Positions 1-62,522 of a DNA stretch of 64,000 nt are shown here, one piece after another; position 1 is the first letter of the stretch, and each line of letters opens with the position of its first letter. Made by a program: the position numbers and the translations under genes. The stretch comes from a virus. A model generated the notes under the pieces. It was not told where the DNA came from. It was given only the letters and a program-made list of their open reading frames with translations, and did not search any database. The stretch spans positions 96,001 to 160,000 of IMG/VR virus record IMGVR_UViG_3300037264_006630; one strand, given 5' to 3'.

Positions 1-127
1 CGGGCGGACAGACGTTCATGTCGAAGAGGATGCGCGAGAGCCAGGTGGAGAGGGAGCGCAGGTCGTCCACCGACGGGGAGGTGAAGGGCGGCCCCGGGAA
101 CGCGATCACGCCGTCGTCAGGTTTCAT
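1..127 (-). CDS. Hypothetical protein, 3' end outside window (MKPDDGVIAF...)
   Basis: ATG at 127 lies 7 nt after the -10 box of the sigma70-type promoter at 123-163; frame open to the window edge. Confidence 0.55.
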   Translation of the reverse strand, partial: MKPDDGVIAFPGPPFTSPSVDDLRSLSTWLSRILFDMNVCPP

Positions 128-163
128 ACACACCATGATGCGCACGAAGTTGGGCGTGGTCAA
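123..163 (-). promoter_or_regulatory. sigma70-type promoter S1 with overlapping operator
   Basis: TTGACC-N17-CATCAT-N7-ATG; operator TTCGTGCG-N10-TGTATGAA at 123-148. Confidence 0.75.
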
Positions 164-848
164 GCGGGTTGGGCGAGCGAGCGCAGGGCTTCGAGGAAGG
201 GGACGAGGTGCTCGTTGTGCATGAGGGGGAGGGAACTGTCTATCGAATCGGCGCCGACGGCGCCGGCCCAGCGAACCCGATCGGGCGGACCGACGCGGCC
301 GATGTGGCACGGCAGCCCGCGTGCGTGCGCGAACCGGACCCAGGCGGCGCCGGTCTCGAGCTTCCACGCGGTGTCGCCCCGACGAAGACCCCGCCGTAGC
401 ACTGCTCGTCGATCGCCGCACCCACCTCGTCCTCGGTCATGCCGTTCTGGACGGCGACGTAGGCCGGGACGCGCGGATCGATGTCATCGCGCCAGTAGGC
501 CGAGAAGGCGAGCGATGCGGCTCCGGCGGCGACCATGTCCGGGACCACGATGAAGGCTGGCGGCGGCACCGGCGCGGTCTCGGGGTAGTCGAGGTGGATG
601 GCGATCCGGCGCATGTCGAACCGCGAGGGCATGATCGCCGCGGACGCCTCGCCGAGCGGCTGGCCGGCGGCACACCAGTCGGCGTAGGTCCGGCAGTCGT
701 GGAACCAGCCGTGCTCGGTGCGGCGCGGGTTCATCTCGCCGCGCTGGGTGCATTCCCCGATGCTGGCGTCGGCGAGCTGGCGGACCATCTCGGGCACGCG
801 GCGCCGAGGGTTCCAGCGGGTCTGGCCGACGTAGGCTTGGAGGGTCAC
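160..848 (-). pseudogene. TGT/DpdA-like (tRNA-guanine transglycosylase fold) protein split by a 1-nt deletion
   Basis: ORFs 240-848 and 160-402 join into one protein (VPDMV, VAVQNG, FVGGDTAWK, HIGRV, GADSIDSS) if one G is added to the G4 run at 377-380; may be a sequencing indel. Confidence 0.55.
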
Positions 849-1030
849 GAAACGTGCTCGTCCGCGGTCGCGAGGATGAGGTTCGGGACTCCATCGGCGA
901 ACACGTACTCGCGGATCTCGCGGGTCTTGGTGCGACGGATGAGCCGGCCCTTGATGCCGTGCTCTCGGGCGAAGGCCAGCGCCTGGGCAGCGGTGCCATG
1001 GGTGAAGTCGGGCAGGTTCGCGGTGGTCAT
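845..1030 (-). CDS. Small hypothetical protein
   Basis: Stop overlaps GTG start of the next gene; GC3-rich codons. Confidence 0.6.
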   Translation of the reverse strand: MTTANLPDFTHGTAAQALAFAREHGIKGRLIRRTKTREIREYVFADGVPNLILATADEHVS

Positions 1031-1061
1031 GCTCTGGAAGAGATGCACGTCGAGGGCCACT

Positions 1062-1991
1062 TCACGCGCTCGGTGAGGTGTGCGAAGCAGCGGCGGGGCC
1101 GGGCTCGAGGTAGCCGCAGCCGGCCGCCTTGGTCGCGCGTACCGCCCGGCCGCAGACCTTGCAGGGCTTGCGGTCGCGCTGCGGGGTGTAGGGCGTGGCG
1201 ACCCAGCGATCGAGCGGCGTGCCGGTCTGGGTCTTCGAGTTGTAGGCCATGATCGAGAGCTTGCGGCCGTTCTTCGCGGTGGGCGGCTTGTCGGCCTCGA
1301 GCTTGACGACCCGGGCAAACTGCTCGGGCAGGTCGACGGCGAAGCGCTGCCAGTCGCCCTTGGTGCCGTAGGGGCAGAACACGCAGGCGGACTTGCGCGG
1401 AACCGGGAAGCCGGCGCGCCGCACGAGATCCTCGCACGCGCAACGGCAGAGGCCGCGCTCGATCAGCGGGAAGCGGTTGCGGCGGATCGCGCCGCCCGGC
1501 CGGCGGCGGCGACGGCCGCCCGCGTTCGGATCCTTGTCTGCGCGGGATTCCTCGCCGCGCTCGAACCCGATCCAGACCTCGACCTCTTGGCCGGGGTACC
1601 GATCGTCGAGCCAGCTCTCGAAGCGCTCGACCTTGGCGACGGTGGTGCAGATCCGGTTCGGCCCGGCCATCGGGATCTGCTTCCGCGCGCGCAGCCACGC
1701 GAACAGGCTGCGCGCGTCGCGGACCGGGTAGTTGCTGTGGTCGATGCACACGAACTCGATCCCGTGGCGCGCGCACAGCGGCCGCACCACCTCGTCGATG
1801 TGGCGGTAGGTGCCGGGCCACTCGCCTGGATCGTCGGGGTGGCCGACGTCGATGAACACCACGACGTCGATCCGCTCGCCGCGCGCGATGCCCTCGACGA
1901 GCATGGCGAAGCTGTCGAGGCCACCGCCGAGCGAGAGCACGACGGGGCGGCGCCGGAGCCCCAGGTCGACGGTGAAGTCGAGCTGGTTCAC
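1062..1991 (-). CDS. PAPS-reductase-family / PP-loop ATPase protein
   Basis: SLGGGLDS PP-loop, IGFERGEESRA, FPLIERGL, KSACVFCPY; GTG start coupled to upstream stop. Confidence 0.8.
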   Translation of the reverse strand: MNQLDFTVDLGLRRRPVVLSLGGGLDSFAMLVEGIARGERIDVVVFIDVGHPDDPGEWPGTYRHIDEVVRPLCARHGIEFVCIDHSNYPVRDARSLFAWLRARKQIPMAGPNRICTTVAKVERFESWLDDRYPGQEVEVWIGFERGEESRADKDPNAGGRRRRRPGGAIRRNRFPLIERGLCRCACEDLVRRAGFPVPRKSACVFCPYGTKGDWQRFAVDLPEQFARVVKLEADKPPTAKNGRKLSIMAYNSKTQTGTPLDRWVATPYTPQRDRKPCKVCGRAVRATKAAGCGYLEPGPAAASHTSPSA

Positions 1992-2218
1992 GATGTCTCG
2001 TACAACTTGAGCGCGAGCTCGAGCGCTACGCCGCCGCGGGTGCGGTAGGCCGCGAGCACCGCGGACTTGACGGTCGGCCCGGTGCAGTCCTCGCCCCCGC
2101 CGGGGAGCGGGACTACCGGCGCGAGGTCGTGGATCGGACATGGCCCGTGCGGCGGGTGCGAGTGGCACGGGGTCTTGCCGGACCGCGCCATCGAGCAACA
2201 CATGCAGGTGACGATCAC
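1988..2218 (-). CDS. Small Cys/His-rich protein
   Basis: CMCC and C-x-HSH-x-HGPC motifs; overlaps neighbours by GTGA coupling. Confidence 0.55.
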   Translation of the reverse strand: MIVTCMCCSMARSGKTPCHSHPPHGPCPIHDLAPVVPLPGGGEDCTGPTVKSAVLAAYRTRGGVALELALKLYETS

Positions 2219-2634
2219 GACACCGCTCCGAGCTCGCCGCTGGTGTCGTCGACCGCGCCGCGCTTGACCAGCGCGCGGGCGATCTCGATCGGGCCGACCC
2301 AGCGCAGGCAGTAGCGCATCCGCTCGGAGGCGCTCTCGAACCGCACGTCCGTGGTGTTGCCCGGAGCCCACCGGACGATGCCCCAATCGAGATCATCGGT
2401 GCCGTCGTCGATCGCGTTGGGGTTCATGTGGCCGATGGTGACCGGGACTCCGTCATCCGGGTCGATGGCGTGGAGGATGCCGAAGTCCTGAATCTCGGCG
2501 ATCGCCAGACCGGCGATCTTGTGGCGGTCGAGCAGGCGACCCAGGGCGGGGACGCCCGTGTAGAGCTCGCGCTTCATGGCGTCGAGAGTGGGGATCACGG
2601 GGAGGCCAGCGGTGGTGAGGGTGGCGGTGTTCAT
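2215..2634 (-). CDS. Hypothetical protein
   Basis: ATGA-coupled to 2631-2900. Confidence 0.65.
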   Translation of the reverse strand: MNTATLTTAGLPVIPTLDAMKRELYTGVPALGRLLDRHKIAGLAIAEIQDFGILHAIDPDDGVPVTIGHMNPNAIDDGTDDLDWGIVRWAPGNTTDVRFESASERMRYCLRWVGPIEIARALVKRGAVDDTSGELGAVS

Positions 2635-2900
2635 GAGCGGCGGCCCTTCCCGGTCTTCCGGGTCTTGGCGGTGAGGATGGTGTACGCCTCGAGCGGCGTC
2701 AGGCGCGTCCCGTCGGCGGCGATGCAGCGCTCGGCGAGCCAGCGCACGGCGCCGCGCTTGGACTTGAGGGTCTTGCTCTCGACGCCGGTGAGGGCGAGCC
2801 AGCCGGCGTTGGTCTGGGTCATGCCGGTCGACCGGCTCTCGTTGTTGCCGAGGTCTTCGGTGGTGAGGCCGGGCCTGGTCGTGGTCGCCGTCGTGTCCAT
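2631..2900 (-). CDS. Hypothetical protein, first gene of sigma54 unit M1
   Basis: ATG 13 nt after the -12 GC. Confidence 0.7.
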   Translation of the reverse strand: MDTTATTTRPGLTTEDLGNNESRSTGMTQTNAGWLALTGVESKTLKSKRGAVRWLAERCIAADGTRLTPLEAYTILTAKTRKTGKGRRS

Positions 2901-3125
2901 GCCGAGGAGTATTGCACGGCCGGTGCCACTTCACGCGCATCAGCAGACGCACGAACGACGGCCGGCTTCCGTCCGGAGTGTCGTCGGCGACGACACTCGC
3001 TCCGGATTCGGTCGCGGAACCGACGATCCGGAGGCGGATCCACCTGCGACCACGCTGCGTTGGCCGCCGCCTGTCGCCGTGGCCGACACCCCTGTGTCCG
3101 CAACGCCACACTCCCGGCGGGTCAG
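2901..3125 (-). promoter_or_regulatory. sigma54 promoter module M1 (two UAS palindromes, operator, -24/-12)
   Basis: TGGCACCGGCCGTGCA (-24/-12 at 2914-2927); operator 2930-2955; TGT-N11-ACA palindromes at 2978-2996 and 3071-3089. Confidence 0.85.
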
Positions 3126-3403
3126 CCGACGATGACCGGATAGGTGGCGTTGTGCGCGAGACCGTTGTGCCAGGCGGCCTTGGCCCTGGCTGCTTCGAGG
3201 TCCCAGGCCCACGTCTCGACGTTGAACGCGAGCAGGATCGCGGGCGTGTCGGTCGAGACGAAGTAGACCAGGGTGTCCCGGTTGGTGAAGTTGAGGACGT
3301 AGCCGCGCGCGAGCGCCGCGTCCTGGACGGCGGCGCGGCGGGCCTTCTTCGAGCCACGCCGCGGCACGGTGGCGACGGCGGCTCTGATCTCGTCGGCGGT
3401 CAC
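3122..3403 (-). CDS. Hypothetical protein
   Basis: Coupled operon gene. Confidence 0.6.
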   Translation of the reverse strand: MTADEIRAAVATVPRRGSKKARRAAVQDAALARGYVLNFTNRDTLVYFVSTDTPAILLAFNVETWAWDLEAARAKAAWHNGLAHNATYPVIVG

Positions 3404-3723
3404 TTGTCACCCAGGGCGTCGAGCCGGGCAGCCTCGGCCTCGTGGAGTGCGGTGGTGGCGGCGCGGTACGCTGCCAGGGCACGGTCCAGGCGGACGCGCT
3501 CGGGCGGGTGGAAGGCGGAGCGGTCGAAGGTCAGCCGGCTCCGCTGGACCATGGCGATGTCGCCGCCGCGCGACACGCACAGGTAGTGATTGCGCACGTA
3601 TACGCGCGCGCCGATCGACGGCTTGGACCAGCGCCTCGCCGGGAAGCCCTCGGCTGCGAGGGCGGCGACGAGGCGGTCGGCGTGCCCCTCGGCTTCGGCG
3701 AGGTCGGTCTGGACGGGGCTCAC
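3400..3723 (-). CDS. Hypothetical protein
   Basis: GTG start overlapping upstream stop. Confidence 0.6.
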   Translation of the reverse strand: MSPVQTDLAEAEGHADRLVAALAAEGFPARRWSKPSIGARVYVRNHYLCVSRGGDIAMVQRSRLTFDRSAFHPPERVRLDRALAAYRAATTALHEAEAARLDALGDK

Positions 3724-4001
3724 GACATCCCCATCAGGTTCGCGGCCTCGGCGTCGGTGAGGATGATGTCGGTGCCGCAGTCCAGGTAGGCGTGCTTGCC
3801 GGTGCTCGGTTGCCAGCAATAGAGCAGGCGGGCCCCGGTGCGCGTGGTGAACGGGACCTCGGTGCCGCCGCACGCCGGAATCCAGGGGCCCTGCGCCTTG
3901 CGCGCATCGGCCGCGTCGAGCAACTCGACGAGCGTACGCTGGCGCGGTCCGAAAAAGGGGTACGGCTCAATCGGGCGGTCGGGGGTGGCGTCGGTCATCA
4001 T
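3720..4001 (-). CDS. Hypothetical protein (PFTTRTGARLLYCWQPSTGKHAYLD)
   Basis: ATG 14 nt after the -12 GC of M2. Confidence 0.7.
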   Translation of the reverse strand: MMTDATPDRPIEPYPFFGPRQRTLVELLDAADARKAQGPWIPACGGTEVPFTTRTGARLLYCWQPSTGKHAYLDCGTDIILTDAEAANLMGMS

Positions 4002-4056
4002 GGTCGAGATGCTTTGCACGCGGTGTGCCGTTCGTGCGCCTAATGATGTGTACGAT
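4002..4056 (-). promoter_or_regulatory. sigma54 promoter module M2 with operator
   Basis: CGGCACACCGCGTGCA (4016-4029); operator TTCGTGCG-N10-TGTACGAT at 4031-4056. Confidence 0.75.
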
Positions 4057-4484
4057 CAGGCGGCCAGAAGCTCCGCGCTCTCATCGTCCCAGGTGCGCTC
4101 GAGGTCCCACGCCGCCGAGCCGCGGACCCAGGTGTTGCCGCGGTGGTCGGCGCGCGCGGCCAGCGCGGTCACCAGCAGCTCGTGTCGGTCGGCATCCCGC
4201 AGCCGCGCCCGCTCGACCCGACGGCGGATCGTGCGGCGGTTGTCGGCCCGGAAGACCTCGACGGAGCGGATGTACTCCGACATGAAGTCACTCTCGCCGC
4301 GGAGCAGCCGCTCCATCTCGCGCACTGCGGCGCCCGCGGTCGGGAAGCGGCCGGTGGTGATGATCCGGAAGCCGGCGGGAACGACCGCGTAGGAGGTGTC
4401 CCGTAGCCAGGGCCGATCGACCACCGTCACCGCGACGCAGTGGTAGTTGCCGGTCCCGAACCCGGTGGTGATCGAGCCGCTCAC
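4056..4484 (-). CDS. Hypothetical protein
   Basis: GTG coupled to upstream stop. Confidence 0.6.
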   Translation of the reverse strand: MSGSITTGFGTGNYHCVAVTVVDRPWLRDTSYAVVPAGFRIITTGRFPTAGAAVREMERLLRGESDFMSEYIRSVEVFRADNRRTIRRRVERARLRDADRHELLVTALAARADHRGNTWVRGSAAWDLERTWDDESAELLAA

Positions 4485-4858
4485 TTGGCCCGTTCCGCGC
4501 GGAAGCGGCAGTCCCGGGCCCGGTCCGCCCACGAGGTGAGACCGGTCTCCGTCGCCGCCCGATCGAGCCGCGCGGCCAGCGCCACCAGCTCGTCGCGGCT
4601 GGCGCTGTAGTCGCGCCGCGACGCCTGCTCGTACCACTCGTTGACGCCGAGCTCACCCAGGGTCGCCGCGTAGGCCAAGCCCTCGCTGCGGGTGATGACC
4701 TCGCCCCGCTCGTCCCGCAGGAGGTCGCCGAACTCGTCGGTCGTCTCGCTTGGCGCCAGCGCCGCCTCCATCATCGCGGCCCCGTGCCAGTCGGCCGAGG
4801 TGCGGCGCTCGATGTGGAGGGAGCGGAGCTGGGCCAGCGTCAGGAGCGTCGTGGTCAT
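4481..4858 (-). CDS. Hypothetical protein, first gene of M3
   Basis: ATG 13 nt after the -12 GC. Confidence 0.65.
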   Translation of the reverse strand: MTTTLLTLAQLRSLHIERRTSADWHGAAMMEAALAPSETTDEFGDLLRDERGEVITRSEGLAYAATLGELGVNEWYEQASRRDYSASRDELVALAARLDRAATETGLTSWADRARDCRFRAERAK

Positions 4859-4912
4859 GCCTCGATCATAAGCACGCGGCGTGCCGTTCGTGCGCTTGTT
4901 CATGTGCGCGAA
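4859..4912 (-). promoter_or_regulatory. sigma54 promoter module M3 with operator (divergent from M4)
   Basis: CGGCACGCCGCGTGCT (4872-4885); operator 4887-4912. Confidence 0.8.
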
Positions 4913-5027
4913 ATCTGGTCGCAGGTCCGCTGTTCGGGCTCGATCTCCCCTTGATTCATGCCGCCCCACCCCATCTCGAGGCGTGTAGATCCGAGCGGTT
5001 GCATCCCAGGTGTGACGGCGTGGCGCG

Positions 5028-5219
5028 CTGACTGCGGCGGCGACAGGCGCGCGCCAACCCGGCGTGACTGCCAGTCTTTACGCCGCCGGACGCGGCCCCT
5101 ACGGTCGAAATCGTGGCGAGTGTCGTCGGTGGTGACAGGGGCAGCGCCGGCGTGGGTGTGGTGTTTCGTGCGCTTGGACGTGCGCACGAAGTGGCACGTA
5201 GCATGCTCTACATCCAGAC
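5028..5219 (+). promoter_or_regulatory. sigma54 promoter module M4
   Basis: UAS at 5120-5138 and degenerate UAS at 5028-5046; operator TTCGTGCG-N10-CGCACGAA at 5165-5190; TGGCACGTAGCATGCT (GG 5193, GC 5205); ATG 13 nt later. Confidence 0.85.
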
Positions 5220-5762
5220 ATGACCCCGACGACGAGCCCCGACGGCCAGTACCTCTCCACCGCGGACCGTTGCCGCCTTGCCCTCAAGACCGCTGGCTTC
5301 AAGTCCAAGCAGGTCACGGTCCGGTCGGACGGCGGCTCCATCTACGTCACCATCCGGACCGCGGACGTGTCGATCACCGCAGTCACCGCGATCGTCAACG
5401 AGTTCGTGGTGGTCTACCGCGACCACGGCCCCTCGCAGGAGATCCTCACCGGCGGCACCAGCGTCTACACCAAGTACGCCCCGGAGGCGCTGGCCCCGCT
5501 CAAGGCCGAGATCACCGCCATCCTCATGGCGACCCCGGCCCGCATCGCCGTCGCCATCGGCCCGCACCATGCGTACTGGTCGCCGGACTACGGCACGACC
5601 GCAACCCCCGATCGCAACTCGACCATCCACACCACGACCGCGATGGTCGTCGGCTCGCAGATGACGCTGCGCGCCAGCGGCCTGGACTTCGGCGCCGAGC
5701 AGCTCGCCACCGACCTGCTCGCCCGCGGGATCAAGACCCTGGCGCCGGAGGTGACGGCGTGA
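5220..5762 (+). CDS. Hypothetical protein
   Basis: Leaderless start after M4; strong GC3 bias. Confidence 0.75.
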   Translation: MTPTTSPDGQYLSTADRCRLALKTAGFKSKQVTVRSDGGSIYVTIRTADVSITAVTAIVNEFVVVYRDHGPSQEILTGGTSVYTKYAPEALAPLKAEITAILMATPARIAVAIGPHHAYWSPDYGTTATPDRNSTIHTTTAMVVGSQMTLRASGLDFGAEQLATDLLARGIKTLAPEVTA

Positions 5763-5986
5763 TCGCCCAACTCGGCCTCTGCCCCGCGTCCACCGCTCGC
5801 CTCGAGCCGATCGAGGAAGCCTTCCCGCTCTGGTCCACCACCTGGCACAAGGGCGACCTCTGCACCGTCGTCGGTCACGACTCCGAGTCGTACCCGGAGC
5901 CGATGGTCAGGGTCGTCTTCGACGACGGCCGACCGGGGCCCGGCATCTTCAAGCGCACCGAGCTCGGCTACCGGGCGGGGTCGTGA
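5759..5986 (+). CDS. Small hypothetical protein (possible SH3-like barrel)
   Basis: GTGA coupling; KGDLCTVV..VRVVFDDG. Confidence 0.55.
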   Translation: MIAQLGLCPASTARLEPIEEAFPLWSTTWHKGDLCTVVGHDSESYPEPMVRVVFDDGRPGPGIFKRTELGYRAGS

Positions 5987-6330
5987 AGATCACCCTGACC
6001 CTGTGGTCGTGCTGGTGCGGCGACGGCAACCACGACCGCAACGGGTCGACCTGCTCTCGCACCCCTGACGGCTCCACCGTCGCCGTGACGGTGCCCTACG
6101 ATGACGCCCCGCACGCCGAGGCCGATACCGCCTGCCCCGTCTGCAAGGCCCCGGCGCCCATCCTGGTGGCCGGTACGGGCAAGCGGATCGTCAACGATCG
6201 AGAGGTCCACGCCGACGGGTACCACCTCGCCTGCAAGGCTCATCTGGGGCTGCTCGTCGCCAAGCCTGACACCCTGTTCGGACTCGAGGAGGATCGCCGC
6301 GTCCTCCACGGTCGCCCCCGCGTCTACTGA
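5983..6330 (+). CDS. Zn-finger-like hypothetical protein
   Basis: CWC and CPVC...HLAC motifs; coupled start. Confidence 0.65.
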   Translation: MKITLTLWSCWCGDGNHDRNGSTCSRTPDGSTVAVTVPYDDAPHAEADTACPVCKAPAPILVAGTGKRIVNDREVHADGYHLACKAHLGLLVAKPDTLFGLEEDRRVLHGRPRVY

Positions 6331-6331
6331 C

Positions 6332-6360
6332 CTGGCTCGTTCCTCGCAACAAGATCCCGC
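6332..6360 (+). promoter_or_regulatory. sigma54 promoter M5 (core only)
   Basis: TGGCTCGTTCCTCGCA (GG 6334, GC 6346); ATG 13 nt later; no operator or UAS seen. Confidence 0.6.
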
Positions 6361-6921
6361 ATGACCACCGACCCAGCCTCTCTCGTGATCGGCATCCGCT
6401 CCCTCAAGGTCCAGCGCCGGCTCTCCGAGGAGACCCTGTGCTTCTCGGCCACCATCGTGGTCAACGGCAAGGCCGCCGGCGAGGCGACCAACCGGGGCTC
6501 CGGCGGGGCGACCGACATCCACATCAAGTCGCCCGAGCTACGCGAGGCAGCGGGCGCGTGGGCTCAAGCCTACTACGCCAACCCCGCGGCCGACGCCGAC
6601 CCCGAGCGGCGCGAACTGGCCGAGGGCAAGGGCGCCGCGTGGTGTCTCGAGCTCTACATCGACTACCTCGTCTACGCTGAGGACGGGCGCCGCGAGGCCG
6701 AGAAGGAAGCCAAGAAGCTCAAGCAGATCGACGCGAAGAACGGCGCCTTGTTCGCGGCCAAAGGCTTCGGCTGGATGGTGCGGCTCACCGGCGACGGCGT
6801 CATCCGCTGGATTCCCATGCGAGAGGCTGCCGAGCAAGCCAGCGTCGTGGCGCAGACCGTCGCCAAGCACCAGATCGCGACCGTCAAGGAGGTCGTCCTC
6901 CTGTCCACCGCGCCGGTCTGA
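6361..6921 (+). CDS. Conserved phage/plasmid hypothetical protein (SEETLCFSAT..NGK..NRGSGG)
   Basis: Recognisable N-terminal motif of an uncharacterised phage family. Confidence 0.7.
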   Translation: MTTDPASLVIGIRSLKVQRRLSEETLCFSATIVVNGKAAGEATNRGSGGATDIHIKSPELREAAGAWAQAYYANPAADADPERRELAEGKGAAWCLELYIDYLVYAEDGRREAEKEAKKLKQIDAKNGALFAAKGFGWMVRLTGDGVIRWIPMREAAEQASVVAQTVAKHQIATVKEVVLLSTAPV

Positions 6922-7140
6922 CCCGCGGGAGTGTGGCGCTGGGGATACGGGGTGTCAGCCACGACGACAGATGATGGCCAAGTCAACGCAACCGCTGGCT
7001 GGAATGCTCGTCGAGCGCACGGAATCGCCGCGGATCTAGGCCGAGTGTCGTCGCCGACGACACTCCGGACTCGGGTCCCCCGCGTTTCGTGCGCCTGAAC
7101 GTACGCGCGAACCGGCACGCCGACTGCAATACACCTCGAC
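6918..7140 (+). promoter_or_regulatory. sigma54 promoter module M6, colinear homologue of M1
   Basis: UAS at 6952-6970 and 7045-7063; operator 7086-7111; CGGCACGCCGACTGCA (GG 7114, GC 7126); ATG 13 nt later. Confidence 0.85.
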
Positions 7141-7530
7141 ATGCCCACGACGACCAACGAGTTCGAGACGATCACCACGGTCACCAGCGCGGACGGCCTG
7201 ACCACCATCGTCTACCGGCCCCCGAACACCGACAGCGAGCGGGCTCGCCGCGCGATGGCATGCACCCGTCTCAACTGGAACGTCACCCGCAACGCCCCGG
7301 GCGGCTGGGTCACCGCCAACGTCACCGTCTCCACCGCGGGCGCCAAGGGCTTCCGGGTCGGCTGGTGCGGCAACCGCGGCAACGGCTGGGGCAAGAACTA
7401 CGGCCGGTGCTTCAAGCTCGAGGCCGACGCGCTCACCTTCGCCGGCATCAAGGCCAGCCAGATGTTCTCGTGGGCCGAGCGCCAGGAGGGCAAGCCCTCG
7501 CGCCCCATCGTCCTCGCCACCATGCACTGA
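7141..7530 (+). CDS. Hypothetical protein
   Basis: Leaderless start after M6. Confidence 0.7.
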   Translation: MPTTTNEFETITTVTSADGLTTIVYRPPNTDSERARRAMACTRLNWNVTRNAPGGWVTANVTVSTAGAKGFRVGWCGNRGNGWGKNYGRCFKLEADALTFAGIKASQMFSWAERQEGKPSRPIVLATMH

Positions 7531-7543
7531 CCGCCGCTTCCCG

Positions 7544-7583
7544 TTGACCTCGCCAGTTTCGTGCATATCATGGAGTGTATGAA
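7544..7583 (+). promoter_or_regulatory. sigma70-type promoter S2 with operator
   Basis: TTGACC-N16-TATCAT-N7-ATG; operator TTCGTGCA-N10-TGTATGAA at 7558-7583. Confidence 0.75.
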
Positions 7584-8949
7584 CATGACGCCCGACGCCG
7601 TTTACGTCCCCGCGCACGCGCTCGCGTCGATCCGCGCCGCGCTCGACAAGGCCACCAACGCCGACCGCCGCCACGCCACGCGCCTCAACCTCGCGGTTCC
7701 GGCCGCGCCGGTTCTCACCGTCGGTGAGGAGCGCCAGGTCCGCGAGTGCTGCGCCTGCCGCCACCAGGCCACCGACATCACGCAGTGGATGTCGGCCTGC
7801 TGCACCGCGCCGGCCCGCCTGCTCACCCTGGTCCCCGTGACGATCAGCGCGCCGCGCCCGACCTGCGGCGCCTGGGAGTTGCTCGCGGTGGTCGAGCGCC
7901 AGCCGGCCGACTTCGAGGGCAAGCCATCGCCGAACCTCCTGCGCCGCGTCCCCGGCTCGACCGAAGATCTAGATCTCGGGCGCTGGCGCACCGGCGACGC
8001 CACCCACTGCGACCACTGCGACGTGGATCGCCGCCGGAACGAGACCTTCCTGGTGCTCTCGCTCGAGAACGGCGAGATCAAGCAGGTCGGCCGCCAGTGC
8101 CTCGCCGCCTTCCTCGGCGACCAGTCCTACGAGTCGATCATCCGTCGCCTCGCCTGGCGCGAGTTGCTCACCGACGGTGGTGACGACGGCGAGGGCGGGT
8201 ACGGTGGTGGTGGTCGCTGGGGCGAGCCGGCGCCTGACATCGAGACGGTGCTGGCGCTCACCGCGACGGTCATCCGCAACGACGGCTGGCTGTCGAAGAC
8301 CGCCGCGCGCGAGCGCTTCGACGGGATCCGGGCGACCGCGGACCAGGTCTACTCGCTGCTCAACCCGCCGCGCGAGGGTGAGCAGCTCCGCGAGTGGCGC
8401 AAGGAGATCGTCCGCCTGGCCCCGCAGCCGACCGACATGGAGCACGCGACGGCGGCGCTCACCTGGGTTCGCGACATGGCCCCGACCTCGGACTACGACT
8501 GGTCGATCCACACCGCCGGCCGGCTCACCCACGTCGAGCACTTCGGGATCGTCTGTTCGATCGTTCCGGCCTACGACCGCGTGATCGGTCGCGAGATCGA
8601 GAAGCGCACCCGGCGCGCCGCAGTACCGGCCTCGGTCCACGTCGGTGCCGTCGGCGAGAAGCTCTCCGCCACCGGCATCTGCGAGAGCGCCCGCGCCGTT
8701 CCCGGCGACCAGTGGGGCACCCGGACTGTGATCACGATCGTGGCCGCCGATGGCGCGGTGGTGCAGTGGTGGAAGTCCGGGATCGTCGATGAGGTCATCG
8801 CGGGCCGCACCGTCACCATCACCGGCAAGGTGAAGAGCCACGGCCAGTACGACGGCCGCGCGATCACCACTCTCACCCGCTGCAAGCTGGTGGTGCTGCC
8901 CGAGGCAGCGCCCGACTGCGGCGGCGAGCAGACGGCGGTGGCGTCGTGA
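7579..8949 (+). CDS. Phage protein with Zn-binding motifs and C-terminal OB-fold-like domain
   Basis: CCAC and CDHC...KQVGRQCL motifs; C-terminal HVGAVGEK..ITGKVKSHGQYDG..TTLTRCK. Confidence 0.7.
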   Translation: MNMTPDAVYVPAHALASIRAALDKATNADRRHATRLNLAVPAAPVLTVGEERQVRECCACRHQATDITQWMSACCTAPARLLTLVPVTISAPRPTCGAWELLAVVERQPADFEGKPSPNLLRRVPGSTEDLDLGRWRTGDATHCDHCDVDRRRNETFLVLSLENGEIKQVGRQCLAAFLGDQSYESIIRRLAWRELLTDGGDDGEGGYGGGGRWGEPAPDIETVLALTATVIRNDGWLSKTAARERFDGIRATADQVYSLLNPPREGEQLREWRKEIVRLAPQPTDMEHATAALTWVRDMAPTSDYDWSIHTAGRLTHVEHFGIVCSIVPAYDRVIGREIEKRTRRAAVPASVHVGAVGEKLSATGICESARAVPGDQWGTRTVITIVAADGAVVQWWKSGIVDEVIAGRTVTITGKVKSHGQYDGRAITTLTRCKLVVLPEAAPDCGGEQTAVAS

Positions 8950-9188
8950 GCTCGGCCCTGTTGCAGCCGCGAGCCGGCATCATCGTCGTGCGGGTCGGGC
9001 AGCTCGTCGTGGCCGGCAACGACTCCTACCAACTCGTCGCCCTGGGCGGCGTCTACGGCGAGGAGGTGCGGCTCTTGGGCAACAAGCCCTACCGGAAGTC
9101 CCGCGCCAAGCCGCTCGGCTGGCGTCGGACCGCGCCACGTCGGCGCACCTGTCGTCCGTGCCGACAGCCGGATGCCAAGGCCGCGTAG
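8946..9188 (+). CDS. Possible small protein
   Basis: GTGA-coupled ORF; its 3' end overlaps a UAS. Confidence 0.4.
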   Translation: MSSALLQPRAGIIVVRVGQLVVAGNDSYQLVALGGVYGEEVRLLGNKPYRKSRAKPLGWRRTAPRRRTCRPCRQPDAKAA

Positions 9189-9326
9189 CGGCAAGAGATA
9201 CCGTCGTGAATCCACAGAGAACACAGGTTGATCACAGGGCACTGTCGTCGCGGACGACACTCCGGACCGCCGCGCGGGACGAGATCGTGCGCACTTGGAG
9301 GCGCGTGAACTTGGCACCGCTCATGC
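9149..9326 (+). promoter_or_regulatory. sigma54 promoter module M7 (leadered, SD downstream)
   Basis: UAS at 9149-9167 and 9242-9260; operator ATCGTGCG-N10-CGCGTGAA at 9284-9309; TGGCACCGCTCATGCT (GG 9313, GC 9325). Confidence 0.8.
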
Positions 9327-9382
9327 TCTACACCGGGCTGTTCGGTCGTCGAGCCGCCAACGTCTACAGGAGGACACGAGCC

Positions 9383-9883
9383 ATGATCTGGGTACACCGC
9401 GACCTACTGCCACCCGCCGTACATGTCATCGTCTCGGGCTGCACTGCGCGTCACGGCGCTGCGGCCGGTATCGCCACCACGTGGGCATCCCAGATCGTGC
9501 AGCGGCGAGGCGCCGACCCGCAGGCGCACATTTTCGCGGGCATGGCGCCCGACGAGCCCATCACCACGATCGGCGTGGCGCGCGGCGTCTCCGCGACGGC
9601 GGCGGCAGGCCGGGTCGTCACGGTGCTGCCGGGCGAGCGCGACCCCGCCGACCGCTCGTGGCTCCGCGAGCTGGCCGCGATGGCGCCGGCGTCCCCCGTC
9701 GGACTCGCGATCGTCGCGATCGTCGACGCCTGGGATTGGGCGGATCGCACGCCCCACGACACCTGCACCGAGTCCGAGGCGCGGGCGCTGGGCCTGCACA
9801 TCGGCTACCCAGGCGAGCGGCACGTCGCCTACCCGGAGGCGATGGGCGTCCGCCTGATCCCGGACCATCCGCCGCAGTGCTGA
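9383..9883 (+). CDS. Hypothetical protein, weak resemblance to a degenerate DHH phosphoesterase
   Basis: AGGAGG SD; VIVSGC..HGAAAG and IVDAWDW loosely echo DHH-family segments, but catalytic motifs are absent. Confidence 0.55.
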   Translation: MIWVHRDLLPPAVHVIVSGCTARHGAAAGIATTWASQIVQRRGADPQAHIFAGMAPDEPITTIGVARGVSATAAAGRVVTVLPGERDPADRSWLRELAAMAPASPVGLAIVAIVDAWDWADRTPHDTCTESEARALGLHIGYPGERHVAYPEAMGVRLIPDHPPQC

Positions 9884-9911
9884 CCGACCCCGACCCCGAG
9901 GAGATCCTGAC

Positions 9912-10376
9912 ATGAGCTACACCTACACCGTCGCGTCCTACCAGGCCGCTGTCGCGCTGTCGCGGCAGATCGTCGATACCGAGCGTGAGGCAGCCGACGC
10001 CGTCAGCGCCGAGCTCGTGGATGCGACGTACGCGACTCGCTACGCTGACAGCCACGCGCTCTATGCCCGCGTCTCGACGTGGCTCGGCCGGTCGCTCGGC
10101 GCCCGCCCCATGCGCGACACCGTCGACGCGATGGTGCGCGAGGATCCGCGATGCGCCCGCTACGCCGTCGCGCTCGCCGACGCGCGCGAGTTCGCGCGAC
10201 ACAGCGACGCCGACATCGGCAGGGGCGCGCACCTGGCGTACCTGGTCGTGCTCCGACTCGCGCGCCGCAACGCCGCGTGGCAGCCGGTCGCGGATGCGTG
10301 GCCGGATCACCTGCGAGAGCGTGGCCCGGTCGGCGAGCGCGACCCGGGCGCAGGCACCGGACACCGCGAGCGCTGA
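9912..10376 (+). CDS. Hypothetical protein
   Basis: GAGGAG SD. Confidence 0.65.
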   Translation: MSYTYTVASYQAAVALSRQIVDTEREAADAVSAELVDATYATRYADSHALYARVSTWLGRSLGARPMRDTVDAMVREDPRCARYAVALADAREFARHSDADIGRGAHLAYLVVLRLARRNAAWQPVADAWPDHLRERGPVGERDPGAGTGHRER

Positions 10377-10510
10377 CCGGCTATCGACGCCGGCGCGAGG
10401 CTGACGGCCTCGCAGCGCACCACACAGCGGCACCCGCCATCTGGCGCAGGCGCTGAGATCGACATGAGCACACCAGCGCCGGCATGACCGGCGCACGAAA
10501 GGCTACGACC

Positions 10511-10984
10511 ATGAGCACCCTGACCCCGCACCTCGACGCCCTCGCTCGCCTCCCCCGCTCCATCACCGACGGCCTCGCCGCGTGGATGTCCTCCGCGATC
10601 CGCGAGGCCGCGCAGGACGCCGACTACGACGAGGCGCCCGCCGACGTCGGCACCGCCTGCCGCGAGATCGCCGCGAGCATCACGACCCCCGACTGCCCCG
10701 TCACGCCGGGCGCCGTCCTCGCCGACCCGTGGCACGCCGCGCGGCTCGTCGTCTGTCGCCGCCTCGCCGCCGAGGGCTACGGGCTGCGCGGCGACGGGTC
10801 CGGCCGTGGCGTCGCCCACGAGTCGGTCATCGCGCAGCACCGGGCCGACGTGCTCGCAGGCTGGCCGGGCGCTCTCGTCGATCTGGCGTGGACCGGGCCG
10901 ACCTGCGCCGAGCGCGGGCCGCAGCAGTGGGAGACGGCGTACCGGATCGTCGAGCGCCCCGACGGCACGGCCGAGATCTCGTGA
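10511..10984 (+). CDS. Hypothetical protein
   Basis: GC3-biased ORF; alternative start 10484. Confidence 0.6.
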   Translation: MSTLTPHLDALARLPRSITDGLAAWMSSAIREAAQDADYDEAPADVGTACREIAASITTPDCPVTPGAVLADPWHAARLVVCRRLAAEGYGLRGDGSGRGVAHESVIAQHRADVLAGWPGALVDLAWTGPTCAERGPQQWETAYRIVERPDGTAEIS

Positions 10985-11169
10985 CCTCCGACGTCGACGC
11001 CCTCGCCATCGCCCGCACCCACCGCATCGACGCCGGCACCCCGGCCGACGAGGGCGAGGCGGCGGACCTGCGGGTCATCGAGCGGATCGCCGCGCTCGAT
11101 CTCGTCGAGCCCGCGCCTGGCTGGATCGATCGCGCCGTCGCGCGGTGGCGCAACACCACCCGCAAGTAG
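10981..11169 (+). CDS. Small hypothetical protein
   Basis: GTGA coupling. Confidence 0.55.
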   Translation: MTSDVDALAIARTHRIDAGTPADEGEAADLRVIERIAALDLVEPAPGWIDRAVARWRNTTRK

Positions 11170-11206
11170 CCATCAACCGTCACCGACAACGACAGGAAAC
11201 CAAACG

Positions 11207-11620
11207 ATGACCACTCAGACCATCGCTCCCGCCCGCCTCTGGCCGTCCTCCGATCACCGCTGGGAGATCCCCGCGCGCCCGTCGTCCAACCCCGACGCGG
11301 CAGTGTACGACATGCTCGTCGACGTCCTCCACGACATCGACCTCATCGCCGCGCAGTGCCCCGACGGCGCCGCGACCGGGTGGCTCGCGCTGCGCACGAC
11401 GGTCCGCGATCGGATCGACGTCGTGGCGCACGCGCCGACCGCGCCGGTGCAGCGCTCGCTCACCAGCGGCGACCGCGTCCGGCGAACCGACGTCGCCGAC
11501 GTGCGCGGCAGGATCACCAGCACCCGCACCAGCGGTGGCGTGTCGTACGCGGTCGTCCGGTACGACGGCGGCATGAACACGGCCGAGTTGCCGACGGCCC
11601 TGTTGGAGCGCGCGTCGTGA
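11207..11620 (+). CDS. Hypothetical protein (C-terminal SH3-like segment)
   Basis: AGGA SD; GDRVRR..GRITS..YAVVRYDGG. Confidence 0.6.
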   Translation: MTTQTIAPARLWPSSDHRWEIPARPSSNPDAAVYDMLVDVLHDIDLIAAQCPDGAATGWLALRTTVRDRIDVVAHAPTAPVQRSLTSGDRVRRTDVADVRGRITSTRTSGGVSYAVVRYDGGMNTAELPTALLERAS

Positions 11621-11991
11621 CGCTGGTGGCACGGACGGAATGGGAGGCGCTCATCCGAGCCGAGGGGATCGATCCGCCGCCGATGGGAGACGGGTTCACG
11701 CGCTGGGCGCCGACGGGCGACCCGGCGCCGGGTGCGCTGTCGCGCCTCGTGTCGACCGGCCTCATCGTGCGCTCGGATGGCACCGCCGTCATGGTCACGG
11801 CGCTGCCGACCATGGAGGACCACGGCATGCTCAAGGCTCACACGGGCGCCGGGGCATTCGCTCGCATGTACCCCGGTCGCGCGACGCCGCTGGACGCGAT
11901 CGGCGCGCTGGGATGGGACGCCTACTGCGAGCTGCTCATCACCGGACCGCCCTCGCGGACGCCGCCGGGTGGCGAACCACGCAAAAAGTAG
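11617..11991 (+). CDS. Hypothetical protein
   Basis: GTGA coupling. Confidence 0.55.
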   Translation: MTLVARTEWEALIRAEGIDPPPMGDGFTRWAPTGDPAPGALSRLVSTGLIVRSDGTAVMVTALPTMEDHGMLKAHTGAGAFARMYPGRATPLDAIGALGWDAYCELLITGPPSRTPPGGEPRKK

Positions 11992-11994
11992 CGG

Positions 11995-12093
11995 GTGTCG
12001 TCGGCGACTACAGGCCGGCGACCACTCCGGAACCAGACTTCGCACACCTGCACGAGCGCACGAACCGGCACACCCCGTGCAGTACCAGGCACC
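11995..12093 (+). promoter_or_regulatory. sigma54 promoter module M8
   Basis: UAS GTGTCGTCGGCGACTACAG at 11995-12013; operator 12039-12064; CGGCACACCCCGTGCA (GG 12067, GC 12079); ATG 13 nt later. Confidence 0.8.
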
Positions 12094-16240: not shown

Positions 16241-16461
16241 CCGACCGCATCCGCCACCTCACCGTCCTGCTCGAGCAGGACACCCGCACCGACGATCTCG
16301 AACCGATCATCGCCGCCATCTCCCACATCCGCGGCGTCGCCAAGGTGACGCCCGGCCAGCCGGTGAACATGAGTGACTACATCGCCCGCGAGACCGCCAA
16401 GCGCGAACTCGGCGTGCAGCTCTTGGCGATCGTCTTCCCGAAGCAGGAGCCGCGGTCGTGA
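16237..16461 (+). CDS. Small hypothetical protein
   Basis: ATGA coupling. Confidence 0.6.
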   Translation: MTDRIRHLTVLLEQDTRTDDLEPIIAAISHIRGVAKVTPGQPVNMSDYIARETAKRELGVQLLAIVFPKQEPRS

Positions 16462-16652: not shown

Positions 16653-16654
16653 CC

Positions 16655-16993: not shown

Positions 16994-17011
16994 TGCGCCA
17001 CCTCGTCACGC

Positions 17012-57418: not shown

Positions 57419-57490
57419 TACCCCGGGCCGGGATCGAACCGACGGCCTGTGCCTGGTAAGGGCCACGCTCTGCCTCTGAGCTACCGGGGC
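57419..57490 (-). tRNA. tRNA-Val(TAC), atypical
   Basis: GCCCCGG/CCGGGGT acceptor stem, D-arm GCTC/GAGC, TTCGATC T-loop, anticodon loop CTTACCA, A73; two anticodon-stem mismatches, C37, no CCA. Confidence 0.7.
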
Positions 57491-57546: not shown

Positions 57547-58446
57547 CTACTCGGTGCGCTTCATGGCGGCCTCCTTGCTCTCGACGGCAGTGGCAAGGCG
57601 AACCCAGCCGGCACAGCGCGGCCCGCCGGTTGCCCAGCACAGGGCGATGTTGCTGCGCACGTCGTAGTCGTTGCCGAGCTTGCCGGCCGTGCCCTCGTCG
57701 AGCATCGCCTGGGTGATGAGCTTGCGGCGGCACTTCGGGCAGACCGTGCCGGCGCGAGCGTGAACCTCGGCCTCGACCTCGGGGGCGCTGGCGCGGAAGT
57801 CGAGAAACGTGTCCCGCATGATCCCGGGCCCGGTCCAGGCGTCGGCCGCGGCCTGGAGCTTCCGATCGATGACCGCCAGCGCGGCCTCGGCGTCATCGAG
57901 CCGGGCGCGCAGGAAGGCCAACTCGTCCAGGCGAGCGGTCTCGCTGGGCGGACCGGAATCGATCGTCCCGGCACCGGGCAGCGGTTCGGCGCCCGCGATC
58001 TCGGCCTGGAGGGCAGCCTGCAACTCGGCCACCGGGTCGTGAACCCCTGCGCTCCCGGACGTCGCGATGGCGAGCATGGCGAGCTCGTGGGCGCTGGGAT
58101 CGTTCACGCCACCAACAGCGGCGACGATGACCTCGATGGCCTCGGCGCCGGCTGCCACGGCACTGGCGAGATGCCCCTCGGAGACGAGGGTGCCGCGCAG
58201 CGACCTCGCCAACGCGGCGGCGCGCGCTGTCGAGGTGAGGGGCTGGACGGTCCACGGCACGCCGTAGCCGGCCCTGTCGAAGAGATCCACCAGATGGTCG
58301 TTGATCTGCTCGGCCAGTCGCCGCAGGTGCTGCAACAGGATCGTCAGGCCCCGGTCCATCCGGGAGCCCGGGGCGATGCGACGCAGAGCCGGGGCGTCGC
58401 CCTCGAGCGCGAGGCGGACCATACCGCCGTCATCGACGTGTTTCAT
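57547..58446 (-). CDS. Hypothetical protein with C-terminal Zn motif
   Basis: Leaderless start in S5; CPKC...C...CAG. Confidence 0.65.
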   Translation of the reverse strand: MKHVDDGGMVRLALEGDAPALRRIAPGSRMDRGLTILLQHLRRLAEQINDHLVDLFDRAGYGVPWTVQPLTSTARAAALARSLRGTLVSEGHLASAVAAGAEAIEVIVAAVGGVNDPSAHELAMLAIATSGSAGVHDPVAELQAALQAEIAGAEPLPGAGTIDSGPPSETARLDELAFLRARLDDAEAALAVIDRKLQAAADAWTGPGIMRDTFLDFRASAPEVEAEVHARAGTVCPKCRRKLITQAMLDEGTAGKLGNDYDVRSNIALCWATGGPRCAGWVRLATAVESKEAAMKRTE

Positions 58447-58483
58447 GCGCCTGAACATACGCACGAACCACCAGCCCCGTCAA
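58442..58483 (-). promoter_or_regulatory. sigma70-type promoter S5 with operator
   Basis: TTGACG-N18-TATGTT-N7-ATG; operator TTCGTGCG-N10-CGCATGAA at 58442-58467. Confidence 0.75.
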
Positions 58484-61092: not shown

Positions 61093-61265
61093 GCGGCCTC
61101 GAGATCGTCGGTGTAGAACCAGCGGTGGCGGTTGTTTCCGAGAACGACCAGCCGCTGGCTGGTCGCGGGCGACGTGTCGATGATGACGCCGCGCAGCTTG
61201 CGGGCGTTCTTGGAGCGGACGTAGGCGCCTACGGGCAGATCCTCGGTCGGCTCGGGGCCGGTCAC
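61089..61265 (-). CDS. Small SH3-like protein (58 aa, below ORF-track cut-off)
   Basis: Manual translation MTGPEPTEDLPVGAYVRS...; coupled at both ends. Confidence 0.55.
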   Translation of the reverse strand: MTGPEPTEDLPVGAYVRSKNARKLRGVIIDTSPATSQRLVVLGNNRHRWFYTDDLEAA

Positions 61266-61494
61266 GCCAGCACGCTCCTCGCCCGGACGCGGAGTCCCTG
61301 AATCTCGAGGCGTCGGCAGATCACCAGCACGGTGTCCGCGTGGTCTTGTGCCACCACCTCGGCCGACAGCGGCTCCAACGTGACGATGGCGAAGTCCCGG
61401 AAGTAGAGATCACCTGGCTGACGTAGGCGACCTGGGCAAACCGAGCTCCCATGTACAGGTCAACCACCACGGCGACGATCATGTCCCTGGTCAT
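61262..61494 (-). pseudogene. Small gene with an apparent 1-nt deletion
   Basis: Adding one G near 61410 joins MTRDMIVAVVVDLY..SQV to DLYFRDFAIV..RSVLA, which ends coupled to 61265. Confidence 0.35.
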
Positions 61495-61526
61495 GACCGC
61501 CATCCCGACCGACAGAGCGGACAAGG

Positions 61527-61868
61527 TCAAGGATTCCAGCCCTTCGGTGCCCGCCAACCAGCGGCCAGGGCGGTCGTGGCCCACTCCGGCCAGGGTCGGT
61601 TGGTCGGGTGCTTGTAGGCGGTGTTGGCGACCTTCCGAGCGGTGTCGGCATCCTTCTCCCTGTGCCAGTAGAACCCCGTACGGTCCTTGCCGTCCGGCGT
61701 CACCGTGGCGGCGGCCTCGCTTGCGACGCGGTGGTTTCGGCCAGCGTCATCGCAGGCGTCGCCGAGACAGAGCCCCTCCTCGCGACCATCAGCGCCGTCG
61801 ACCTCCCAGCACACGCGGTGTTGGTAGTGCTCTCCGGCCACCATGTAGACGATCAGACGGTCCGCCAT
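61527..61868 (-). CDS. Hypothetical protein
   Basis: GGAGG SD. Confidence 0.6.
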   Translation of the reverse strand: MADRLIVYMVAGEHYQHRVCWEVDGADGREEGLCLGDACDDAGRNHRVASEAAATVTPDGKDRTGFYWHREKDADTARKVANTAYKHPTNRPWPEWATTALAAGWRAPKGWNP

Positions 61869-62252
61869 GCGGCCTCCAGATACGCGGCGTCCCGGAGCTT
61901 GCCGGACAGGCCGTGCCTGGCGAGCAGGGTGACGATGTCCGTCATGGCTTCCGTGGACGGCACGATCCACGCGAGACGCCGCAGGTGTGCAGGTCGAGTC
62001 CGTGACGCTCGGCTTCGTCGACCAGAGGGTCGATGTGGTGGATGTTGTCCGAGGTCGCCCACAGGTCGATGAGACGTTGATGGATGACCTCGGCCGGTTC
62101 GTCCATCAACTCGACCACAACGCGGTAGCCCAGACCTCCGGCGCTGTGCGCGCAGGTTGTAGACGGCGAGCGTCGGGTACCCGAAGGCGAATGCTTCCGT
62201 GTGCTCGGGCGGGCTCGGCGATGGCTTGGGTGCGGATCGGTGCGCCATCGGA

Positions 62253-62486
62253 TCAGCCTTCATCCGGCGGCGGCGCGAGCTCGCCGGGCGCGAGCTCGCC
62301 GGGCGTGACCACCGACCACCGACCGCCGGTGCTCACGATCCGCCCGGCCTTGCGGAGCCGCAGAACGGTCCGGTCGTACCTGGGCATGCTGAGACCGGTC
62401 ACTTCCTGGATCTTGGCCGCCTTGTCCGCACCGCCCGCGATGGCTTCGCAGACCAGATCCTCGTCCTCTTCGCTTCGCGTTTTCAT
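62253..62486 (-). CDS. Small winged-helix DNA-binding protein
   Basis: AAKIQEVTGLS..RYDRTVLRLRKAGRIV..G.RW. Confidence 0.65.
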   Translation of the reverse strand: MKTRSEEDEDLVCEAIAGGADKAAKIQEVTGLSMPRYDRTVLRLRKAGRIVSTGGRWSVVTPGELAPGELAPPPDEG

Positions 62487-62522
62487 GCGCCTGAACGTAC
62501 GCGCGAACCACGCAGTCGTCAA
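62482..62522 (-). promoter_or_regulatory. sigma70-type promoter S6 with operator
   Basis: TTGACG-N17-TACGTT-N7-ATG; operator TTCGCGCG-N10-CGCATGAA at 62482-62507. Confidence 0.75.

Follow-up and report, generated by a model that had tools for sequence, protein, structure and literature searches.

A 26-base-pair (bp) palindrome was found to be embedded in promoters of two different architectures in a 64,000-nucleotide stretch of a virus genome (positions 96,001-160,000 of the IMG/VR record IMGVR_UViG_3300037264_006630; hereafter, the window) and in the remainder of the 184,943-bp record. One architecture is of the sigma70 type (class I), the other of the sigma54 type (class II). The palindrome takes a fixed position within each class, is symmetric without covariation between its arms and is conserved in related phages. 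We infer from these sequence features that a protein binds the palindrome, where this protein comes from and in which direction it acts. With a probability of roughly 60%, the palindrome is the operator for one dimeric or tetrameric protein, probably phage-encoded, that would repress class I promoters by occlusion and would either block class II promoters or bend their DNA.

The exact pattern TTCGYGCR-N10-YGYAYGAA gave 11 strand matches, representing 10 sites, in the 64-kilobase (kb) window, while shuffled sequences are expected to give 0.01. When up to two mismatches were allowed, the window had 30 strand matches (16 sites) compared with 1.2 expected. A preceding analysis of the same DNA (the sequence-only reading) had claimed at least 14 copies. 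Every coordinate it listed was recovered with no more than two mismatches, and a new sigma54-type copy at 1061-1086 was added. The genome-wide scan that it had proposed revealed 37 good copies in the complete record, 24 of class I and 13 of class II; the window holds 6 and 9 of them, respectively. All 37 palindromes are located at gene 5' ends, with offsets fixed within each class. The virion block (25-53 kb of the window) lacks a good palindrome, as the sequence-only reading had noticed. A two-mismatch, single-strand match at 52071 is positioned within a virion gene and is probably a chance occurrence.

The consensus, TTCGTGCRC-N8-GCGCACGAA, is G+C-rich and symmetric. Over the 37 sites, both classes have their information concentrated at motif positions 1-8 and 19-26. 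Apart from TA and ATG, which are specific to class I, little is carried by the centre and the adjoining DNA. Complementary arm pairs are observed, at each of the 10 arm positions, just as often as expected from independent columns, and there are no compensatory arm changes across the 37 sites. The lack of covariation suggests two independently read half-sites and disfavours a hairpin, a terminator or a cruciform. Moreover, since the class I transcript would start inside the motif and the class II motif lies upstream of the promoter, transcripts made from the element's own promoter would largely lack it.

Class I promoters typically have a TTGAC(N) -35 box (weaker in a few cases), followed after 10-11 nucleotides (nt) by the palindrome. 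TAnnnT occupies motif positions 9-14 and ATG positions 22-24, 7 nt past the -10 box. The palindrome covers the -10 box, the start site and the leaderless ATG, spanning about -21 to +5. The left half-site falls into the -35/-10 spacer, where sigma70 polymerase requires no specific sequence. In 20 of the 24 copies the ATG starts a real open reading frame (ORF) with high GC at third codon positions, and the encoded proteins therefore start with MK or MN. In another three copies the ATG starts a mini-ORF of 7-10 codons (window 23697-23720, genome 5749-5775 and genome 71366-71398). In the two cases read, the mini-ORF stop overlaps the real start as ATGA or GTGA, an arrangement that looks like leaderless translation coupled to the downstream gene. 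An independent consensus scanner identified three sigma70-like promoters within window positions 1-20000, all three being class I. When its generic sigma70-consensus rule was extended to all 185 kb, there were 13 matches, each of which is a class I site.

In class II promoters, the palindrome stops 1-3 nt before GGC[AC]C-N6-TGC[A/T]. This holds for each of the eight copies that the sequence-only reading had assigned to sigma54-type promoters. The elements expected of a sigma54 promoter are present: GG and GC at the correct GG-N10-GC spacing, and a start about 12 nt downstream, the start site being placed from the sequence. The palindrome centre lies ~15 bp upstream of GG, so that the palindrome spans about -52 to -27 relative to this predicted start. 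Counted from the palindrome's first base, the ATG follows after 55-57 nt, and the predicted leader is ~2 nt in all copies except the one at 9284. There are 16 sites in the genome that match GGC[AC]C-N6-TGC with an ATG 12-14 nt downstream. The palindrome is present in 13 of them and a degenerate trace of it in two (genome 76528 and window 17178); the remaining site (genome 79056) has none. For 10 of the 13 class II copies we found a proximal upstream site, TGTCGTCG-N-CGACGACA, centred in nine cases 44.5-54.5 bp upstream of the palindrome centre; several copies have a second one at 127-140 bp. An antisense sigma70 promoter within class II copies was considered and rejected, as the -10-like A is mostly missing and the spacing to the sole -35-like hexamer is ~20 bp.

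The upstream sites themselves (window 2975-2991, 7042-7058 and others) read GTGTC-N9-GACAC, often followed by TCCGGAC. The CRP-family regulator MrpC of Myxococcus is reported to bind GTGTC-N8-GACAC. Judging from this resemblance, the upstream 'enhancer' could be a site for an MrpC-kind protein rather than for a sigma54 activator.

To look at the conservation of the palindrome, we used homologues of the 456-residue protein encoded at window 7579-8949. They led to contigs of three related phage types (78%, 70% and 67% identity), and all three carry the palindrome. Three class I copies are also present in L138, a 1.8-kb contig from Hainich groundwater that has no other DNA similarity to the phage and whose proteins occur on no other contig. 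These relatives and L138, all from other metagenomes, contribute 8 further copies in diverged flanks. Their source samples are SRR30813761/63/67/69/87, SRR14751610/12, JGI 3300051786 and, for Hainich (H41), ERZ1292619/24/25; that of the palindrome-free relative is SRR18899880. Upstream of the orthologous 456-residue gene, the flanks have fully diverged and yet the -35 box and the palindrome are retained. The phage and two of the relatives have a sigma70-type leaderless promoter at this gene, whereas the 78% relative has a class II cassette (L167:472-540 aligned with window 7544-7583); the palindrome is in place in all of them. According to the alignment, the change of class in contig L167 involved TA to CC and ATG to ACG substitutions and the gain of a -24/-12 box and a new ATG downstream. 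Thus, the palindrome persists through a switch of promoter class.

More distant relatives delimit the element. A relative at 48% identity (contig L175) has kept sigma54-type near-leaderless promoters and lacks the 26-bp palindrome. It has a four-copy promoter of its own, TTGACATCGGCGCG-N9-TAtAgT, at 1129-1160, 1819-1850, 4189-4220 and 5558-5589. In relatives at 34-36% identity we detected neither the palindrome nor sigma54-type near-leaderless promoters. Since the palindrome is missing in the relatives at 34-48% identity, it is confined to one subclade, as phage-specific specificity would be. As judged from these contigs, the embedded conserved sequence differs between phage lineages. A metagenome motif scan returned 34 matches, of which only L138 is genuine, the others being chance or coding occurrences. 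The matches from the IMG/VR motif scan were rejected as single chance occurrences, and the 163-kb contig L104 is unrelated.

If the palindrome is an operator, one half-site (TTCGYGCR) would be read per subunit or subunit pair, and the binder would act at almost every recognizable promoter of the phage and its closest relatives. At class I promoters, a protein bound over the -10 box, the start site and the leaderless AUG would block RNA polymerase. The span of the palindrome is the classical one for occlusion, in agreement with the original suggestion, and class I repression is very likely if any protein binds. For class II, two outcomes might be considered. The class II site directly abuts the -24 box, and therefore a bound protein could hinder the sigma54 holoenzyme, as well as looping, which would result in common repression. 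Alternatively, a DNA bend would let the activator reach the polymerase and thereby provide a sigma70-to-sigma54 switch. The sequence-only reading had placed the class II copy where IHF normally binds, and the copy is indeed found halfway from the proximal upstream site (about -87) to the core. Because the site centre (about -40) is near the midpoint of the upstream site and the -12 box, and a loop of ~75 bp needs a sharp bend, IHF-like action is possible. With the forced ATG position excluded, positions off consensus are more frequent in class II (16%) than in class I (5%), which would fit weaker binding at class II.

A bolder version would give one phage protein two opposite jobs: occluding the sigma70-type leaderless promoters and substituting for IHF at -40, where a bend in the DNA would let a host enhancer-binding protein at about -87 fire the sigma54-type promoters, so that transcription is handed over from sigma70 to sigma54. 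We regard it as doubtful. In the literature searched, a phage-timed hand-over from host sigma70 to sigma54 has not been described for any phage. An immunity system, the other role proposed by the sequence-only reading, is unlikely. Many copies over the phage's own promoters, as in an immunity network, are indeed present, since all 37 are at promoters. However, among the best 25 Pfam families listed, with strong E-values, for the 258 phage proteins, there is no integrase-type family, and the only lysogeny function that turned up is a 559-residue ParB-like protein (genome 160947-162626). The genome, with an exact 127-bp direct repeat at both termini, looks like that of a large lytic phage. Temporal regulation would be a more natural role for the binder than immunity.

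The proposal of one regulator site shared by both promoter classes holds well on the DNA side: the element is symmetric, occurs in two architectures, has independently conserved half-sites and is kept in relatives. On the protein side, no binder was found. None of the four regulators that the sequence-only reading had put forward has a Pfam or PHROG match, and only the protein encoded at 62253-62486 resembles a winged helix. This putative winged-helix protein (minus strand, 77 residues) is a candidate binder with its own class I promoter. The ORF is directly behind the palindrome, as that of an autoregulated repressor would be. Its atlas feature scores are 0.91-0.93, and its ten best family-bearing matches share a family or clan, mostly winged-helix. 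Atlas structure comparison gave template modeling (TM) scores of 0.68-0.74 to the winged-helix domains of IclR, MarR and DprA, and there is a weak Pfam match to wHTH-PRTase_assc (E = 0.024). The single-sequence model has an H-H-H-E-E topology at a predicted local distance difference test (pLDDT) value of only 57. We detected no homologue of the protein among 5.8 billion proteins, and for this reason its conservation in relatives could not be shown. The ORF also contains a perfect 15-nt tandem duplication (window 62272-62301), corresponding to a repeated PGELA in the C-terminal tail.

A weaker lead is a basic protein of 89 residues (17366-17635, plus strand), a possible helix-turn-helix regulator with an atlas score of 0.81 to HTH_3/HTH_23 clusters. 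Its low-confidence model has three C-terminal helices, and its gene belongs to a sigma54-type operon that, unlike most others, has no palindrome. The single-sequence models of the 77- and 89-residue candidates (pLDDT 57-59) were too poor for a fold search. A GerE-type protein of 96 residues (genome 67889-68179) is encoded within a class I operon. As a candidate it could not be linked to the site: its homologues of 51-61% identity come from other phages, and the contigs of three of these have no palindrome. Ribbon-helix-helix proteins were rejected, since they are encoded in or beside a transposon and do not belong to the core phage.

Several observations weigh against a dedicated operator. None of the candidate proteins could be established as the palindrome binder, for they are either ORFans or unlinked to the site. 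Every sigma70-like promoter has the palindrome, and consequently promoter and operator roles are inseparable by presence or absence. The cassettes are clearly homologous to each other, including the first codons. Common ancestry or gene conversion thus explains part of their likeness, so that the 37 copies do not represent independent events. The half-site centres are ~18 bp apart, which is unusual for small helix-turn-helix dimers. Finally, the 401 Myxococcota genomes in which a host regulon was sought (see below) are a sample; the true host may be outside it, and a small host regulon is possible.

It might be argued that the palindrome has no dedicated binder and is just carried along, as inherited baggage, in a promoter cassette that is mobile or has been duplicated. 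Like the promoter/stem-loop cassettes of T4-type phages, such cassettes would spread and be homogenized by recombination, and any conservation would be due to promoter function and gene conversion. This explanation agrees with the likeness among class II cassettes, which extends from the upstream site into the first codons, and with the presence of the palindrome at every sigma70-like promoter. It also agrees with the gene order in the 78% relative (contigs L167 and L168), a mosaic whose modules are separated by up to 37 kb in the phage. When these modules were compared with genome positions 77206, 96240, 103561 and 113789-116275 and the promoter cassettes at the module joins were examined, the cassettes turned out to be located at module boundaries. 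However, conservation within the cassettes is far higher at the half-sites than in the 8-10 bp centre or in the stretch that separates the palindrome from the upstream site. The same half-sites occur in two architectures at different distances to the start site, and the palindrome is kept at the orthologous 456-residue gene despite the fully diverged flanks. In addition, sigma70 polymerase has no known need of TTCGYGCR in the spacer. We consider this explanation unlikely.

Another explanation is that the palindrome is the site of a nucleoid-associated protein or global regulator of the host, adopted by the phage. The host is probably a myxobacterium, as suggested by the DDE transposase of the inserted transposon. 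Its best matches in reference genomes come from metagenome-assembled genomes (MAGs) of Kofleriaceae (65% identity) and Polyangia (51%), both of them Myxococcota and each encoding sigma54. Family searches found neither a sigma54 gene (PF04552) nor an enhancer-binding ATPase gene (PF00158) in the phage, which therefore seems to depend on the sigma54 and activator of its host. The failure to find a phage binder and the sharing of the site by relatives from different metagenomes also favour a host protein. In 401 Myxococcota genomes the exact matches are about twice as many as those of a reversed-pattern control, and yet no genome has a multi-copy set. Each has 0-3 exact sites, with one exception, in which six strand matches come from a repeated element. 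Among 12 matches examined, about eight are in frames with high third-position GC and probably represent genes, and one, located between convergent genes, resembles a terminator hairpin. No exact site is present in the Kofleriaceae and Polyangia MAGs. With so few copies per genome, and most of those examined in probable genes, a large host regulon is unsupported in the genomes searched. Moreover, the 48% relative keeps sigma54-type promoters without the palindrome, as would fit a specificity that differs among phages. A host protein as the binder is, in our estimate, quite improbable.

The palindrome might also act through DNA structure instead of a specific protein, with Z-DNA or kink-prone alternating tracts, or a cruciform, letting supercoiling tune the promoters. 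Deviations from the consensus over the 37 sites comprise 57 transitions and only 4 transversions, although the count is biased by the pyrimidine/purine (Y/R) pattern used to pick the class II set. Because nearly all deviations are transitions, each half remains an alternating pyrimidine-purine tract, and the longest alternating run has a mean of 9.8 nt compared with 5.0 nt in the background. Shape reading, or kinking at flexible steps, may be behind the transition bias. On the other hand, the absence of arm-to-arm covariation speaks against a cruciform, and the alternating tracts, at 8-10 bp, are short for Z-DNA. Base-specific reading is indicated by the invariant TTCG/CGAA ends and by the GC that is fixed at positions 7 and 20. 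We find a purely structural role very improbable. An RNA hairpin, acting as a terminator or attenuator of upstream read-through or as a translational element, is scarcely credible: read-through transcripts of upstream operons would hold the whole palindrome, but the arms do not covary, no U tract follows, Rfam has no matching family and a class I transcript would start at motif position 22, without the left arm.

To place the operator interpretation among known systems, we compared the palindrome with other multi-copy regulatory sites. To our knowledge, control of many phage operons by one operator is known only at sigma70-type promoters, and natural phage promoters using host sigma54 are almost undescribed. 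In the literature searched, we found neither a natural phage that has a set of sigma54-type promoters nor one whose two promoter classes share an operator. The C1 repressor of phage P1 similarly has one regulator site at many dispersed promoters of a large genome, overlapping core elements and jointly controlling many operons. In contrast to the 26-bp palindrome, which serves sigma54-type promoters too, the C1 operators are asymmetric, 17 bp long and restricted to sigma70 promoters. P1 also has a known repressor gene and plasmid-prophage lysogeny functions, whereas a lysogeny module was not seen in our phage. The stoperators of cluster A mycobacteriophages, recognized by L5 gp71-type repressors, are asymmetric 13-14-bp sites that are oriented with transcription, bound by monomers and mostly located within or between genes (PMC6550527, PMC9283540). 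Like the palindrome, they are short sites present in tens of copies genome-wide, and a protein bound to the palindrome would likewise obstruct read-through transcription; unlike them, the palindrome is symmetric and always embedded in a promoter. The P1 C1 operators and the stoperators, all asymmetric, confined to sigma70 and found in temperate phages, are the nearest parallels.

IHF sites lie between the upstream activator site and the sigma54 core and are asymmetric and A+T-rich, with the consensus WATCAANNNNTTR (PMC3897727). The class II palindrome likewise occupies the interval from the upstream site (about -87) to the -24/-12 core, close to where the required loop would have its apex. However, it is G+C-rich and symmetric, abuts the -24 box, does not match WATCAANNNNTTR and occurs also over the sigma70-type -10 box. 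The phi29 protein p4 resembles the switch reading in that a single phage protein on inverted repeats represses one set of promoters and activates another. It differs in acting only at sigma-A promoters, from upstream positions and together with p6, with no sigma54 promoters involved. PeSLs, reportedly described by Arbiol et al. (2010), are mobile cassettes of T4-type phages that consist of an early sigma70 promoter and a stem-loop. The phage cassettes are likewise repeated, head small accessory gene modules and mark mosaic boundaries between relatives, but their arms do not covary and their element is common to two promoter classes. CIRCE, TTAGCACTC-N9-GAGTGCTAA, is a 9-bp inverted repeat bound by the dimeric winged-helix repressor HrcA. 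Its repeat/spacer geometry over the promoter and start-site region is similar to that of the palindrome. Nevertheless, the palindrome (TTCGYGCRY-N8) has a spacer of 8 rather than 9 and shares only 5 of 9 bases with the CIRCE consensus, and it is present in tens of copies in the phage, whereas CIRCE has few copies, at heat-shock operons.

The individual class I copies of the window are all exact matches. The six sites previously assigned to sigma70-type promoters each have a TTGAC box 10-11 nt upstream and TAnnnT and ATG inside. The suggested overlap with a start codon was borne out in that the ATG starts a real ORF at five of them, and at 23676 a mini-ORF instead. Three copies are on the minus strand. 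The one at 123-148 has a TTGACC -35 box at 163-158 and a CATCAT -10 box, and its ATG starts a 176-residue ORF. The second, at 58442-58467 (TTGACG-18-TATGTT), starts a 299-residue ORF, and the third, at 62482-62507, starts the 77-residue winged-helix candidate. The plus-strand copy at 7558-7583 (TTGACC-16-TATCAT, score 10/12) heads the 456-residue phrog_2319 gene, and that at 19556-19581 (TTGACC-17-TATGGT) heads a 232-residue ORF and has an orthologous site in the 78% relative (L167:4203). The last copy, at 23676-23701 (plus strand), starts a mini-ORF of 7 codons that ends in a TGA overlapping the start codon (ATG) of the gene at 23717. It heads a long plus-strand gene block running into virion genes, and class I at 23676 is the only promoter type recognized for the 30-kb virion block.

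Four of the nine class II copies are on the minus strand. The newly found copy at 1061-1086 has two mismatches, GGCCC-N6-TGCA and an ATG offset of 57. The copies at 2930-2955 and 4031-4056 have one mismatch each and are followed by GGCAC-N6-TGCA after 2 and 1 nt, respectively; the former has a perfect TGTCGTCGCCGACGACA site 44.5 bp upstream (centre to centre) and the latter an ATG offset of 56. The copy at 4887-4912, an exact match with GGCAC-N6-TGCT 1 nt further on and an ATG offset of 55, is the divergent partner of the plus-strand copy at 5165-5190, which is exact on both strands, with GGCAC-N6-TGCT 2 nt further on and an ATG offset of 56. The remaining copies are on the plus strand. At 7086-7111, an exact palindrome has a perfect upstream site 44.5 bp away (centre to centre) and is followed by GGCAC-N6-TGCA. 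The copy at 9284-9309 (two mismatches, GGCAC-N6-TGCT 3 nt further on) lacks an ATG up to 16 nt from the -12 box and, alone among the class II units, has a leader and a Shine-Dalgarno sequence. The copy at 12039-12064 has one mismatch, followed by GGCAC-N6-TGCA, and an ATG offset of 56. The copy at 18335-18360 is exact and heads a PAPS-reductase-like gene; according to the alignment, its full cassette is kept in L167. In addition, a sigma54-type core without a recognizable palindrome is present at 17178-17192 (plus strand). It reads GGCACCCCTCGTGCT, then ATG, while the 26 nt upstream mismatch the motif, and its operon contains the 89-residue helix-turn-helix candidate.

The phage record has a G+C content of 69%. 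By DNA similarity, we found no cultured relatives of the phage, and IMG/VR has no close relative. The major capsid protein (window 29345-30772) shares only 30% identity with its counterpart in the Streptomyces phage Kromp, and the genes of the window include those for head morphogenesis, a tape measure and a Baseplate_J domain protein. The genome also codes for DnaB, the DNA polymerase III beta clamp and several DNA methyltransferases in addition to the ParB-like protein. A tRNA gene, the sole Rfam match of the window, is situated at 57419-57490 (minus strand) between replication-side genes.

As a pair of small, portable parts, the cassettes could serve to test the effect that a regulator beside the -24 box has on sigma54 transcription. 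Across 185 kb and the relatives, the promoters share a modular design consisting of a -35 or -24/-12 box, a common palindrome and a leaderless start. If the operator interpretation is true, promoter class would be swappable in evolution without loss of control, as at the one orthologous gene. Moreover, if one protein reads the palindrome, a single factor would set the state of almost all phage transcription in its myxobacterial host.

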